From assembly GCA_041649315.1 (NCBI GenBank), contig JBAZNJ010000002.1, forward strand, positions 192,851 through 256,850: a stretch of DNA of 64,000 bases. Direction: 5' to 3'. The notes beneath the pieces were generated by a model. That model was not told the origin of the DNA, made no database searches, and saw only the letters and a program-made list of their open reading frames with translations. Within the stretch, counting starts at the first letter, position 1; the number at the start of each line of letters is the position of its first letter. A program made the translations under genes and the position numbers. Positions 12,709 through 25,920 of the stretch are shown one piece after another. The DNA comes from Patescibacteria group bacterium. GTDB lineage: Bacteria > Patescibacteriota > Patescibacteriia > Patescibacteriales > UBA12465.

Positions 12709-12737
12709 AAACAAAAACGCCTCTCCGAAATGGAGAG
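12704..12737. repeat. Direct-repeat copy 1 of a terminator module (CTTAAAAACAAAAACGCCTCTCC-N4-GGAGAG)
   Basis: 33 of 34 nt identical to 12967-13000 in the same orientation. Read on the minus strand it is the terminator of the tRNA-like gene. Confidence 0.75.
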
Positions 12738-12841
12738 GGTTCTTGGTCCCTTCCGGGAACCACTGCTTGATAATCTTAATTATATTATAAGGAAAGCTTA
12801 GAAAATAATCAAGAGGCGGGAGGCAACGGACTTGAACCGTA
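12712..12841 (-). repeat. Left arm of an inverted repeat (tRNA 3' half + trailer + terminator)
   Basis: The reverse complement matches 25792-25920. The first 40 nt are identical (12802-12841 vs 25792-25831). The remainder is diverged but keeps a GGTTC..GAACC hairpin and the CCCTCTCC..GGAGAGGCGTTTTTG terminator. Confidence 0.75.
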
Positions 12842-12902
12842 TTCCTTATCAGGGAACCAATTGATTATCAAGCAATGACGCCTCCTCGACGCTTTACCTC
12901 CC
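12817..12902 (-). tRNA. Atypical class-II tRNA-like gene, 86 nt (long variable arm, discriminator G, best fold 8-bp acceptor / 4-bp T stem, anticodon loop UUGAUAA)
   Basis: Hand fold of the minus strand. Acceptor GGGAGGUA pairs with UGCCUCCC. D stem GCGUC pairs with GGCGU (two G-U pairs). Anticodon stem AUUG(C) pairs with (U)CAAU. Variable arm GUUCC-CUGAUAA-GGAAU. T arm ACGG-UUCAAGU-CCGU. CCA is not encoded (GCC then T). Confidence 0.55.
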
Positions 12903-12966
12903 GTAATTATAACATAGCAAATTGAGGATGAATAAAAATTAAACTTTTTTTAAAGAAAAATTTAAT

Positions 12967-13000
12967 CTTAAAAACAAAAACGCCTCTCCAAAATGGAGAG
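12967..13000. repeat. Direct-repeat copy 2 of the terminator module (a functional-looking bidirectional terminator)
   Basis: CGCCTCTCC-AAAA-TGGAGAGACG hairpin with A-run upstream and T6 downstream. 33 of 34 nt identical to 12704-12737. Confidence 0.75.
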
Positions 13001-13091
13001 ACGTTTTTTATCCGAACCGCAGTCCGGACTTATTTATTATGGCATCGAGCCGAAAGCTGCGACACCGCTAAAAATTAATCTGTACTGATAA

Positions 13092-14363
13092 TTAATCCGT
13101 AATCGTAAAATCAATACTATAAGTCAATAAGGACTGGCCACCGTCAACCTTAATATCCGTCCGGCCGCCATCTAATTCCGGAATCGTTAATTCCGCCGTA
13201 AAGCGTCCGTAGCTATCCGCAGTTATAACCGTATTCTTCTGGCCGCCGAAAAGGATATGTAAATCCTCGCCCGGGAAAAATCCGGTACCGCTTAGGACAA
13301 CCTTGGCTCCGGCCGCGCCTAAATTATGGTCTAAACCTAAAGATAATTTTTCCGGCGCGTAAGGATTAGCTTCTTCCGTTGATTCATAAGACGCTAATTT
13401 CTGTAAATTTTCATCCAACACTAAAATATTAGTATTGTTGAAAATCACGACTTTATCACCGCCGGCATTAACCACAGACAAACCCATGGCCCAACCGTGC
13501 GCGCCGCCGACCTCAGTCGTCTGCTCATATCCAACTTCCTCCATCGTATTTTTATTGAGTTTAACCACGCCTAAGCCATTAGAAAAATAAATATAATCAT
13601 TATAGCCAGAAGCGGACACGTCATAGCCGTTATAATCCGCGTGCTGGAAATAGCCTAAAAGCTTGCCGTCCAAATTGAATTTCTTGGCGTAATAATCATC
13701 AACTACATAAACATTCTTAGTCGCGTCTTGATAAGCCCGGCGATTACCGGCTTCTTTATAATTAAGTGCAATCTTGGCTTTTCCCGTCCGAGTCGTACGA
13801 TCATAAATAATTAAATAATCACCCTGAACATTAAGGATATGCTGGCCATTGCCGCCGCTCACATTATAAGGATTCTCCTTATTAGTAAATTTATGCTCGT
13901 CAATAACCTGCAAATCCTGGTTCCAGATTTTAACGCCCTTGTCGCTTAAAGTAACTAAATTATTTTCAAACTTATTTAAGCGCGTATACCATTCCCAATA
14001 ATTATTCTTTTGGTCGCTGATATATTTTAAATCATCGCCGACCACTTCGTATTTATAAAAGGAAAACCCGCTCGTTGCAAAAACGAAAAGCCGGCCGTTT
14101 TCCACTGAGAATTTCATGTCATAAAACTTCCCGTAATCGTTAAAACGGGGAAGAAAAGGACGAACCTTGCCAATCAGTTTTAATTCGCCGTCTTCTAATT
14201 TTAGGACCTCTAAACTATCGGTATTGGCGGAACCGACATAGACCTGGTTATTGTAGCTAACCGCGTCACCGGAATAATAGGTTTTGGTCTTACTTTCGCT
14301 TCCTTTAACAAAGCCGAAGACGATTAAAAGAGCCGCTAAACCTAAAAAAATCGCTTTTTTCAT
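13092..14363 (-). CDS. Secreted beta-propeller-like repeat protein with a C-terminal Ig-like (IPT/TIG-like) domain
   Basis: Signal peptide MKKAIFLGLAALLIVFGFVKG. Repeated beta-strand blocks. C-terminal VVLSGTGFFPGEDLHILFGG...IKVDG. Confidence 0.7.
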   Translation of the reverse strand: MKKAIFLGLAALLIVFGFVKGSESKTKTYYSGDAVSYNNQVYVGSANTDSLEVLKLEDGELKLIGKVRPFLPRFNDYGKFYDMKFSVENGRLFVFATSGFSFYKYEVVGDDLKYISDQKNNYWEWYTRLNKFENNLVTLSDKGVKIWNQDLQVIDEHKFTNKENPYNVSGGNGQHILNVQGDYLIIYDRTTRTGKAKIALNYKEAGNRRAYQDATKNVYVVDDYYAKKFNLDGKLLGYFQHADYNGYDVSASGYNDYIYFSNGLGVVKLNKNTMEEVGYEQTTEVGGAHGWAMGLSVVNAGGDKVVIFNNTNILVLDENLQKLASYESTEEANPYAPEKLSLGLDHNLGAAGAKVVLSGTGFFPGEDLHILFGGQKNTVITADSYGRFTAELTIPELDGGRTDIKVDGGQSLLTYSIDFTITD

Positions 14364-14500
14364 ATTTTTTAGTAAAATTTATGTAAATTATTTTAATAAT
14401 TAATTATCTCTATTATTTAAGAAATCTATAAAACTTTATAAAATTCTAAGAAAAATACTTATAAAATCGACAGAAAACAAAAATTTCACAAATTCCCAAT

Positions 14501-14529
14501 ATTATATCTTATTTAATAAATTTTGTCAA
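14501..14529 (-). promoter_or_regulatory. Promoter of 13092..14363
   Basis: On the minus strand: GGTCTTGACAAAA (-35 at 14529-14524), 17 nt spacer, TATAAT (14506-14501). Confidence 0.6.
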
Positions 14530-24042: not shown

Positions 24043-24061
24043 TTTTCTCCTGTCAAGACCC

Positions 24062-24089
24062 TTGACAAAATCTGTATTTATGTTAAAAT
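24062..24089 (+). promoter_or_regulatory. Promoter of P8
   Basis: ACCCTTGACAAAA (-35 at 24062-24067), 16 nt spacer, extended -10 TGTTAAAAT (24081-24089). Confidence 0.6.
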
Positions 24090-24188
24090 TAAGGGATTTT
24101 TATAAGTATAAGAATCGCCGGAGAATCTATGATTCATTCGGCTAAAAATAGTATATTAACAAATTATAAATACATAAATTCAGAAACG

Positions 24189-25718
24189 ATGAAAAAGATG
24201 AAAAATTTTTTGATAATAATCGCCGTCGTTGCAGCAACAATGGTGATAAGTTCGGATGCCTTCGGGCAGGGAATGGTTAAGAACTTAACTAAACAGGCCG
24301 TAGTAATAAAAGACATACGGCTGAGGACCGATTTGCATTTAAGAATCGGGGAGACAGCCTGGATTAGTGCTGACCCCGGAGTTAATTTAAATGTACCTGT
24401 TTTTACTACAAAAGCTATAGTAAAAGATAAATTTGGGAAAGATAGTATTATAATAGATACAACTATCATTACCATGAACTTTGCGGGGAAGGGCAGTATA
24501 TTTAACTTAACCGATGAGGAGCTGGCTAAAGGAAAAAAAATGAAGCCAGCGCAAACATTCAAAGGTTCATCAGCACCAACCGCTTCGGCTAATTTAAAAT
24601 CTGCGCCTGTTGCGAATCTTAGCCCGACAACCACCCCAGAACCGGAAAATTACGTTCCTATGGTTGGGAAACGGGTTAAGAATGACCTGGATGCGATTTT
24701 GTTCTTCCAGGATCGTGGCATCTGCCTCGCTCCCGGGAAAACCTCGATTAACCTCGTTCAATTATCACCTAACGAGCGGATAATTATTGAACGGAATAAT
24801 CGCTTATTCTTTCTCGAAATAAATGATTTCTTTGCTTCTAACGATAAAATTTATGTCGTTAACGAAGAAACATTATTAAGAGGCGAAGGGCAGGATAGCG
24901 TTAAAATTTCTTTAACGGCTGGAAACACTCCTTATGTTTTTATCGATGATAAAACTAAGGAAGTTAAAGGTATTAGGGAACAGAAGGGCCGCGGCGGTTA
25001 TGCGAAAAACTTCGCCGAGGGTGCTAACACAATTATGTGCCAAATCCTGAAAAATGGAGTAGCACAAACCAGGTATTACACTTTCATGGCCTCAAGGGCG
25101 ACTTCTTATGTTAGCCCGTCGCAATTAGCGTTTGACAATCCGCCATTATTTCAAGGACGCGCGATTTATTTACCCATCAAGGGTTTTGACAAAAATTGCG
25201 CGGTGGAATTTCTGGATATTGACGGAAGAAACATTTCAGAACGAATAGTTCTGGATGAAAACGGCACTTCAGTGGAACAGGAAGTACGCCTTGGTATGAA
25301 CCGGGTCCGGGTTACCTTCTTTGAAAGGACGCCTCAAGGCCGGGTTCGTTATTCAATCGAATATTTCAAGTTGGTCACTGAGGCCGACAAGGAATTCAAG
25401 ATTGATCCGGAATACTTCTGGCTTCTCGAAGGGCCGCCGGTAGCTGTTAGGCCTAAAAACGGCGCTAAAAGCCGCTTGTTCCAGGATTTAGAAATCTGGG
25501 CTAGCGATAAAAAAAGTGGCGAGCCAAAAAAACTGGTAATCAAAAAAGATTATCCAAGTGAAGTTGTACATCTTCGCGAGGGAATTGTCCGATTACCGGG
25601 AAGATATACTGAGGGACTAAGTATCAGAAATCTTACTTGTACATTTATTATTTCGTACATGGATAAAAATAAAGATGTTCTGATAACTGACGAAAATATC
25701 GATCGTTCGCAGGAATAA
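24189..25718 (+). CDS. Secreted protein of unknown function (P8)
   Basis: From ATG 24189: MKKMKNFLIIIAVVAATMVISSDAFGQG. The track's ATG at 24129 would add 20 residues unlike a signal peptide. No recognisable domain. Confidence 0.7.
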   Translation: MKKMKNFLIIIAVVAATMVISSDAFGQGMVKNLTKQAVVIKDIRLRTDLHLRIGETAWISADPGVNLNVPVFTTKAIVKDKFGKDSIIIDTTIITMNFAGKGSIFNLTDEELAKGKKMKPAQTFKGSSAPTASANLKSAPVANLSPTTTPEPENYVPMVGKRVKNDLDAILFFQDRGICLAPGKTSINLVQLSPNERIIIERNNRLFFLEINDFFASNDKIYVVNEETLLRGEGQDSVKISLTAGNTPYVFIDDKTKEVKGIREQKGRGGYAKNFAEGANTIMCQILKNGVAQTRYYTFMASRATSYVSPSQLAFDNPPLFQGRAIYLPIKGFDKNCAVEFLDIDGRNISERIVLDENGTSVEQEVRLGMNRVRVTFFERTPQGRVRYSIEYFKLVTEADKEFKIDPEYFWLLEGPPVAVRPKNGAKSRLFQDLEIWASDKKSGEPKKLVIKKDYPSEVVHLREGIVRLPGRYTEGLSIRNLTCTFIISYMDKNKDVLITDENIDRSQE

Positions 25719-25748
25719 GCAACAATGTCTGACACTTGAAACGATCTT

Positions 25749-25789
25749 AAACGCCCGATTTGACCAAAATCAAATCCGGGCGTTTTTTA
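25749..25789 (+). terminator. Terminator after P8
   Basis: ACGCCCGATTTG pairs with CAAATCCGGGCGT (one bulge), followed by T6. Confidence 0.7.
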
Positions 25790-25791
25790 TT

Positions 25792-25816
25792 TACGGTTCA
25801 AGTCCGTTGCCTCCCG
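25792..25816 (+). pseudogene. Orphan tRNA 3' fragment (T arm plus 3' acceptor strand plus discriminator)
   Basis: TACGGTTCAAGTCCGTTGCCTCCCG is identical to the 3' end of the tRNA-like gene at 12817-12902. No matching 5' half lies upstream. Confidence 0.75.
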
Positions 25817-25920
25817 CCTCTTGATTATTTTTTTTCTTATGCTACAATATTAATGTTTATCGGACGATGGTTCTCTTATCTGGGAACCAAAAACCCTCTC
25901 CTTATGGAGAGGCGTTTTTG
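25792..25920 (+). repeat. Right arm of the inverted repeat (tRNA 3' half + trailer + terminator)
   Basis: See the left arm at 12712-12841. 40 nt are identical, then diverged similarity through GGTTCTC..GGGAACC and CCCTCTCC-TTAT-GGAGAGGCGTTTTTG. Confidence 0.75.

Follow-up and report, generated by a model that had tools for sequence, protein, structure and literature searches.

Two small lineage-specific additions probably explain an inverted tRNA-like repeat around an old envelope locus in a Patescibacteria genome

A tRNA gene (tDNA) together with a displaced tDNA fragment is the Islander signature that marks a genomic island, and the principle of tDNA attachment (att) blocks is stated in the same work (PMC4383910). 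Allo-tRNAs, in which the acceptor branch is divided 8/4, were described by Mukai et al. 2017 (PMC5389517), and for the allo-tRNA(UAU) group both stem-destabilising mismatches and an association with mobile or rearranged DNA have been reported (PMC5389517). Here we describe a locus that recalls both systems. It lies in a stretch of 64,000 nucleotides (the window) from a Falkowbacteria-like Patescibacteria group bacterium (assembly GCA_041649315.1, contig JBAZNJ010000002.1, positions 192,851 to 256,850), in which a complete tRNA-like gene with its trailer and terminator (the left unit) and a truncated copy of its 3' part (the right arm) stand in inverted orientation on either side of ten genes (the bracket). 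We consider it probable that this inverted repeat consists of two small lineage-specific additions around an old static bracket, the right arm being a recent insertion of a truncated, diverged copy.

A repeat search of the window returned a perfect inverted repeat of 40 nt, 100% complementary, with arms at 12802-12841 (minus strand) and 25792-25831 (plus strand) and 12,950 nt between them (12842-25791). The pair has an E value of 1.9e-17 in a sensitive self-BLAST of the window, which gave no further copy, and its 24-mer core occurs there exactly twice, compared with no occurrence in 100 shuffles. The left block comprises the T arm, the 3' acceptor strand, the G discriminator and CC of the tRNA-like gene, followed by TCTTGATTATTTT. 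Past the block the copies can be aligned as far as GGCGTTTTTGT, with 62 of 96 columns identical (~65% overall, falling to ~55% across the AT-rich middle and reaching ~90% over the terminator); the local alignment score of this diverged part is 54, the maximum of 500 shuffles being 26. Both copies keep a GGTTC..GAACC hairpin (12745-12761, where it reads GGTTCCCGGAAGGGACC, and 25869-25888) and a CCCTCTCC..GGAGAGGCGTTTTTGT terminator whose second half is GGAGAGG, named here terminator B (12711-12740, minus strand) and terminator C (25894-25921, plus strand). Between block and terminator lie the left trailer (12741-12801, minus strand) and the diverged right trailer (25832-25893, plus strand), the latter type being marked by GTTTATCGGACGATGG.

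The right copy is the tRNA-like unit truncated at its 5' end. It begins immediately 3' of the T-run of the intrinsic terminator of the 529-aa gene (25750-25791, plus strand), which is conserved in three related contigs (L014, L015 and L016), and the 5' two-thirds that it lacks has no match elsewhere in the window (BLAST, word size 7). The initial annotation had described this inverted module from a hand alignment, as identical over 40 nt and diverged beyond but with both hairpins retained; the repeat search, the self-BLAST that it had called for and the shuffles confirm it, and the alignment shows similarity that extends past the 40 nt. Its observation that the right copy starts straight after a terminator T-run, without the 5' part of the tRNA, also holds, as does its remark that inverted arms with both 3' ends pointing outward are unlike a simple integration.

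The right arm is absent from the closest relative. A 21-mer scan of JGI metagenome contigs returned a sole contig, the sister strain L014, whose nucleotide identity to the window is mosaic (49-100%, and 93-96% in conserved genes). In L014 the bracket is complete and oriented as in the window, and the 21-mer core occurs only once; where the window has ~135 nt at the right site (25793-25927, plus strand), L014 has ~13 nt. The indel measures ~125-136 nt, its boundaries being uncertain by ~10 nt, and its flanks are 99-100% identical on the side of the 529-aa gene (24571-25799) and 94% identical on the other (25936-27087). The site reads ...GGGCGTTTTTTATTT GCGGTTCGGTTTAATGGTCA AAAAACCGCCC... in L014, compared with ...TTATTT ACGGTTCAAGTCC...(~135 nt)...GATTATC AAAAACCGCCC... 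in the window, where the convergent GT4 gene beyond it (26029-27126, minus strand) has a bidirectional terminator at 25948-25987. In the outgroups L015 and L016 the right junction spans ~130 nt and holds two back-to-back terminators only. Since the right arm is missing in L014, L015 and L016, an insertion in the lineage of the window is the parsimonious reading. Moreover, because identity to the left unit is 40/40 and then falls to ~65%, the present left unit was not the template of the right arm, and the sequence points to a diverged paralogue or a related genome as its source.

The gene order of the bracket is much more widely shared. Its ten genes encode, in order, the 423-aa, Wzz/GNVR-like, 331-aa, 275-aa, GH5-like, PKD-domain, 439-aa, 308-aa, 227-aa and 529-aa proteins. 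In L016 (a JGI contig) and in L021/L022 (Falkowbacteria, GCA_000999715.1 and GCA_003489845.1) these genes are collinear and in the same orientation relative to both flanks, without either arm, and the orthologues in L016 and L021 share 27-65% amino acid identity with them. The exceptions to collinearity are the 227-aa open reading frame (ORF), which has no match at E<1e-8 in L016 or L021, and the 275-aa gene, which L016 also lacks. The more distant relatives L008-L013 have a frame made of a Xer-type recombinase, M23 peptidase, GltX, TagA-NUDIX, CorA and GT4 on one side and of the Wzz-like, 423-aa, GT4, GT4 and Wzy_C genes on the other, with other genes between the two sides and with no tRNA or repeat module at the locus. 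No "empty site" for the 12.9 kb was found; all relatives have genes between the 365-aa GT4 gene (GT4-365) and the 423-aa/Wzz-like pair. These comparisons indicate that the bracket belongs to the ancestral layout of a locus for cell-envelope polysaccharide and surface proteins, in which it is static and collinear and its middle genes are hypervariable.

This result bears on several earlier proposals. The view that the bracket splits a glycan cluster by insertion is not upheld, the layout being ancestral and collinear in L016 and L021/L022, and the uninterrupted GT4-GT4-GT4-TagA arrangement suggested as an empty site was not seen in any relative compared. Of the three readings offered, an island that later inverted is contradicted by the same gene order and orientation in L016 and L021/L022 without arms, and by the presence of the bracket in L014 without the right arm. 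For a segment that inverts by recombination, relatives sharing the gene order and showing no orientation variants had been named as the refuting observation, and this is what the relatives show. The third, a decayed duplicated tRNA locus, comes closest to our findings.

Mobility genes and assemblies agree with a static bracket. Pfam searches of all ten bracket ORFs (13092-25718) gave no recombinase, integrase, transposase or reverse transcriptase, as the initial annotation had stated for integrases, and among all ORFs of the window the sole mobility-type match is a Xer-type tyrosine recombinase (32992-33948, minus strand; Phage_integrase and SAM_1). This gene lies 7 kb from the bracket, and its counterparts in L008, L011 and L013, where the repeat is missing, are 83-88% identical and occupy the same position beside the M23 peptidase gene; we therefore set it aside as an invertase or integrase. 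A MEGAHIT contig assembled at k141 (ENA ERZ27247363, k141_2040117, 270 kb) crosses both arms in one orientation, and this assembly, L014, L016 and L021 show one orientation only. Logan k31 contigs (SRR8542065) break exactly 30 nt into each arm, one of them measuring 13,010 nt (12,950 + 2x30), because an assembler with k=31 breaks at a 40-nt repeat. We rejected these ends as evidence of inversion; they show that both arms are in the sample and are uninformative on orientation.

The left unit is also confined to a narrow lineage. It includes the complete non-canonical tRNA-like gene of 86 nt (12817-12902, minus strand), a predicted extended -10 promoter element upstream (TGtTATAAT, 12906-12914, minus strand), which would place the transcription start at about G1 of the gene, the trailer and terminator B, which also faces the convergent GT4 gene ending at 12708. 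L014 is 100% identical to the window over 12700-13060, left unit included, and L019 carries an identical left unit; the tRNA-like gene is thus the same in strains whose neighbouring genes differ by 4-6%. The unit is missing in L020, which has 71% identity in the 423-aa protein and a spacer without the unit, and in L021. The left junction is 68 nt with a single terminator in L021 and 77 nt in L011. When 215 kb of the relatives' loci were searched with BLAST, ARAGORN and two covariance models, only the known copies appeared; a 29.6-bit covariance-model match at 12972-13054 proved to be terminator A.

Terminator A (12974-13008, minus strand) belongs to the 423-aa gene. The initial annotation needs a correction here, as a third copy of the module's terminator lies just upstream of the tRNA-like gene, at 12967-13000: a 34-nt direct repeat (12704-12737 and 12967-13000, 33 of 34 positions identical) flanks the whole tRNA-like unit and overlaps terminator A. 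In L020 the single terminator and the spacer at this junction show homology to terminator A and the spacer upstream of the unit's promoter (score 42, reached in 0 of 500 shuffles), and terminator A is therefore the ancestral terminator of the 423-aa gene. The sequence indicates that the unit and its near-identical terminator B are an addition downstream of terminator A, and the flanking repeat suggests that the addition took place with, or by recombination through, a terminator. About 25 nt past terminator B (on the side of the window below 12686) the sister strains diverge wholly from the window, which we read from the alignment as another recombination breakpoint at the edge of the unit; where the window has the end of the GT4 gene, L014 (14480-14605) and L019 (2890-2925) have GC-rich palindromes (GGGGGTTGCAGGGGGATATCCCCCTGCAC).

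We propose that two events produced the present arrangement. In the first, a complete unit (promoter, 86-nt gene, ~105-nt trailer with hairpin, and terminator) would have been added between the convergent 423-aa and GT4 genes, in the lineage of the window strain and the sister strains only. In the second, restricted to the lineage of the window strain, ~135 nt representing the 3' part of a diverged copy of the unit, from the T arm through the terminator, would have entered the terminator spacer between the convergent 529-aa and GT4-365 genes. The incoming DNA may have carried a homologous unit from a paralogue or related strain. It would have been joined by illegitimate, microhomology-assisted recombination, the empty site reading TTTGCGGTTCGG and the insert starting with TTTACGGTTCAAG. 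The 40-nt identity could stem from conservation of the mature 3' end and first trailer bases, or from a short gene-conversion patch acquired later. Homology-facilitated or microhomology-mediated illegitimate recombination occurs in naturally transformable bacteria, and the right arm resembles its products: a short stretch of paralogous or foreign DNA, joined where 6-7 nt of microhomology lie, at the boundary of 99-100% and 94% identical tracts. It differs in the base at the junction edge (A vs G), which does not fit a simple crossover inside the microhomology. On this view the inverted geometry is incidental, and the arms mark no island boundary and no programmed switch. The most that might be expected is an occasional RecA-dependent inversion through the 40 bp, after which the tRNA-like gene would still be intact.

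Several observations weigh against two independent additions. No donor was found in the 64-kb window, the 215 kb of related loci, GTDB representatives, JGI contigs, IMG/VR, or phage and plasmid records: the GTDB representatives gave no match with the 24-mer and none with a loop-spacing pattern, four patterns run against IMG/VR gave only two unrelated phage tRNA-like matches, and blastn of core and trailer against the phage and plasmid records gave none. An identity of 40/40 beside ~55-65% is unexpected from neutral divergence of one insert, and needs selection, conversion or a mosaic origin. The identity block, which runs from the 5' strand of the T stem to 13 nt past the 3' end, is shaped like a T-loop-type att block. 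The polarity of the right site rests on three genomes without the arm, the indel is surrounded by messy spacer sequence, and L014 may instead have lost the arm by deletion between CGGTTC repeats. Finally, the tetranucleotide usage of the bracket is the most atypical among the 13-kb windows (1 of 52 larger). This anomaly peaks at 18-22 kb (z=3.1), over the GH5-like, PKD and neighbouring genes, which also vary most from strain to strain, and fades before either arm, and the GC content is unremarkable; GC and tetranucleotide profiles, which the initial annotation had recommended across 12-27 kb, thus do not single out the arms.

The best-surviving alternative, which we nevertheless regard as unlikely, is an old inverted duplication that preceded the strain split, with trailers that diverged in place, 40 nt made identical again by conversion, and a deletion in L014 between the CGGTTC repeats. 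It would account for the abrupt break between 100% and ~55-65% identity. The 15-mer TTTAATGGTCAAAAA is common only to the "empty" right site of L014 (1149-1163) and the L020 spacer after the 423-aa terminator (2094-2108), and TGCGGTTCGG occurs at the right site of L014 as well as at 13012-13021 of the window, where it lies upstream of terminator A; both hint at a left-site-like spacer at the right site (score 30, compared with a shuffle maximum of 22), so that the right-site spacer itself may be derived from left-site-like sequence. However, the flank to the left of the fragment is 100% identical to L014 over ~550 nt, and the ~35% divergence in the adjoining 90 nt can therefore not have accumulated in place unless that flank was recently replaced. 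The two outgroups also show no trace of the unit at the right junction, and three extra events are needed.

Somewhat less probable still is that the fragment is an att scar, left by an integrative element that was later lost except for one arm. The extent of the identity block has the T-loop-type tDNA att shape, and Williams is said to have found in 2002 that T-loop-type tDNA att blocks are usually of this kind. There is microhomology at the junction, and relatives carry mobile-element genes at the same locus: in L016 an rve-family transposase lies between the 423-aa and Wzz-like genes (1045-2109), and in L009 a Y1 (IS200-type) transposase follows the PKD gene (4724-5056). Yet no integrase and no element DNA are left. 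The left unit and its trailer are unchanged between strains with and without the right arm, and therefore no integration took place at the gene itself. Past the block, homology to the chromosomal trailer continues up to a terminator, which attP arms would not be expected to show, and core and trailer were not found in the IMG/VR, phage and plasmid collections.

Programmed or recurrent inversion, in which the 12.9 kb would flip between the arms and swap the trailer of the tRNA-like gene along with the orientation of ten genes, is very improbable: a perfect 40-bp inverted repeat exists, in a geometry that keeps the tRNA-like gene intact and joins it to an alternative trailer, but there is no dedicated recombinase (the Xer-type gene sits at a conserved position in relatives without repeats), only the one orientation was seen in the k141 assembly, L014, L016 and L021, the sister strain lacks the right arm, and each bracket gene has its own promoter-like and terminator signals, so that flipping would have no obvious regulatory effect. 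Two ways of copying were also considered and rejected. Adenine mutagenesis between the copies, as in diversity-generating retroelements, does not fit differences that, judged by eye, include indels and non-A positions. An RNA-mediated (retro) copy would fit a fragment that ends at a terminator, although no reverse transcriptase is encoded in the window and the left unit was not the template.

The tRNA-like gene itself escapes standard tools. ARAGORN reports no tRNA or tmRNA gene in the window, and Rfam at gathering thresholds gives no match there and, in a 700-nt search, nothing tRNA-like at E<=10. RF00005 aligns over its full model to 12818-12901 (minus strand) with 25.9 bits (E=7e-4), below its threshold of 29 bits, a match that appears only when ~100 nt are searched alone, and the alignment deletes one T-stem pair. 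The ARAGORN miss and the sub-threshold score mean that it is not recognised as a canonical tRNA gene; of the "tRNA" of the initial annotation the tRNA-like character stands and the recognition as a tRNA does not. Identification as tRNA-Sec, tmRNA or a Y-RNA-like RNA has no Rfam support, with no RF01852 match at E<=10.

The RF00005 alignment, together with direct evaluation of the folding energy, yields a cloverleaf. The gene has an acceptor stem of 8 bp, a T stem of 4 bp and the T loop UUCAAGU, so that the 12-bp acceptor branch is split 8/4, with the acceptor helix extended by A8-U78 and G1-C85. The D stem has 5 bp, two of them G.U pairs, and a 5-nt loop (GAGGA). The anticodon arm reads AUUGC/UUGAUAA/UCAAU, with the anticodon GAU and a stem of 4 bp plus a C31.U39 mismatch, and the long variable arm GUUCC-CUGAUAA-GGAAU forms a 5-bp stem with a 7-nt loop. 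The G discriminator lies at 12817 and is followed by CC. All 26 pairs of this 8/4 cloverleaf are standard; its energy is -26.4 kcal/mol, compared with -28.9 for the minimum free energy structure and with -23.3 for a version with a 7-bp acceptor stem.

A tRNA-like sequence with a GAU anticodon was also seen in a phage tRNA cluster (L017 273-338; IMG/VR UViG_3300045988_044102). It lacks a variable loop and part of the anticodon stem, receives no ARAGORN call and scores 20 bits with a model of the window's tRNA-like gene.

The trailers might themselves be expressed. Both have a sigma-70-like promoter at an equivalent place (TTGATT-17-TATAAT, 12812-12784, minus strand; TTGATT-16-TGcTACAAT, 25821-25848, plus strand), with the -35 element TTGATT inside the identical 40-nt block, and each of the ~75-nt RNAs downstream is predicted to have an unpaired 5' end followed by the hairpin and the terminator. 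Promoter-like matches are common in the AT-rich window (68 found, 47 expected). In the left trailer, 15 nt (12761-12775) are complementary, with one G.U pair, to the anticodon arm of the unit's own tRNA-like gene (12863-12877), and folding predictions for the full-length left transcript favour this long helix over the cloverleaf. No targets of a right-arm "seed" exceeded chance within the window. From these predictions one could propose a two-part RNA module, which we think improbable: an 8/4 allo-tRNA-like RNA with an Ile (GAU) anticodon and serine-type identity elements, plus a co-directional ~75-nt trailer small RNA, the two engaged in RNA-RNA control or forming a toxin-antitoxin-like pair. 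The small RNA may come from the internal promoter, with its -35 element in the 40-nt block, or from 3' processing, and the right arm would be a transplanted orphan small-RNA gene with a different 5' "seed". If true, this would be the first allo-tRNA-like gene reported from Patescibacteria. A seryl-tRNA synthetase (SerRS) is encoded in the window at 40466-41734.

The genes of the bracket vary widely in conservation. The 423-aa protein (13092-14363, minus strand) matches no Pfam family. With 283 homologues at E<=1e-60 it is common and well conserved among Patescibacteria, its closest named relative being in a Candidatus Falkowbacteria metagenome-assembled genome, and its gene is always paired with a Wzz/GNVR-like gene and GT4 genes. 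Over 17998-24000 the identity to L014 is strongly mosaic (49-100% per 250 nt), and the PKD-domain protein (19303-20541) shares 43% amino acid identity with its L014 counterpart, compared with 94-98% for neighbouring genes. The genes of this interval look like rapidly exchanged or diversifying surface proteins, judging from these alignments. Elsewhere the window encodes a TagA/WecG-NUDIX fusion protein (28427-29815), a VirD4/TraG-like coupling protein (43609-46092) adjoining dnaX and, at its edge, a CCA-adding enzyme ORF (63069-63932).

What is left of the inverted repeat is a shortened second copy of a non-canonical, lineage-specific tRNA-like unit, in an envelope locus prone to recombination. 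The value of the case is mainly negative: a tRNA-fragment "bracket" can mimic island ends or a DNA switch and yet consist of a gene and a stray, truncated copy that are paired by chance, and comparison with a sister strain and two outgroups decides the question. The locus also suggests that, in ultra-small bacteria, small DNA pieces are taken up by the terminator spacers that separate convergent genes of a recombination-prone surface-structure locus. The item that deserves specialist attention is the tRNA-like gene, with its 8/4 geometry, its lineage-specific distribution and its escape from standard tools.

Compared with the Islander signature, the locus has an intact tRNA-like gene and a 3' fragment that share an exact 40-nt block from the T arm to beyond the 3' end. 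It differs in that the fragment is inverted, whereas direct repeats are the criterion, and in that no tyrosine integrase lies in the interval. Furthermore, relatives keep the interval in synteny, and a strain that lacks the fragment has the interval too, so that an "empty site" exists for the 135-nt fragment only, and the sequence past the exact block is still homologous between the two copies. Invertons and shufflons likewise have inverted repeats flanking a multi-gene segment, but the segment described here has no adjacent invertase and no orientation variants in assemblies, and one of its arms is missing in the sister strain.

The 3'ETS-leuZ RNA of E. coli is reportedly a small RNA derived from the 3' external transcribed spacer (3'ETS) of a tRNA. 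The window unit is similar in having a long structured trailer that follows a tRNA-type gene, ends in a terminator and could be released as a small RNA; it differs in that the left trailer has a free 5' end whose sequence complements the anticodon arm of the tRNA-like gene in the same unit.

With allo-tRNAs the tRNA-like gene shares the 8-bp acceptor stem, the 4-bp T stem, the long variable arm and G73 (allo-tRNAs have G73 or U73), as well as an anticodon for an amino acid other than serine (Ile) and a long D stem closed by a small loop. Its predicted geometry therefore recalls the 8/4 allo-tRNAs, while other features do not fit: the D loop has 5 nt where allo-tRNAs, with their tRNA-Sec-like D arm, have a tetraloop, the anticodon stem has 4 bp plus a C.U mismatch where that of allo-tRNAs is extended, and the tRNA-Sec model gives no match at E<=10. 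Patescibacteria are not among the phyla reported for allo-tRNAs (PMC5389517), and the gene, if expressed, would extend non-canonical tRNA-like RNAs to this group.

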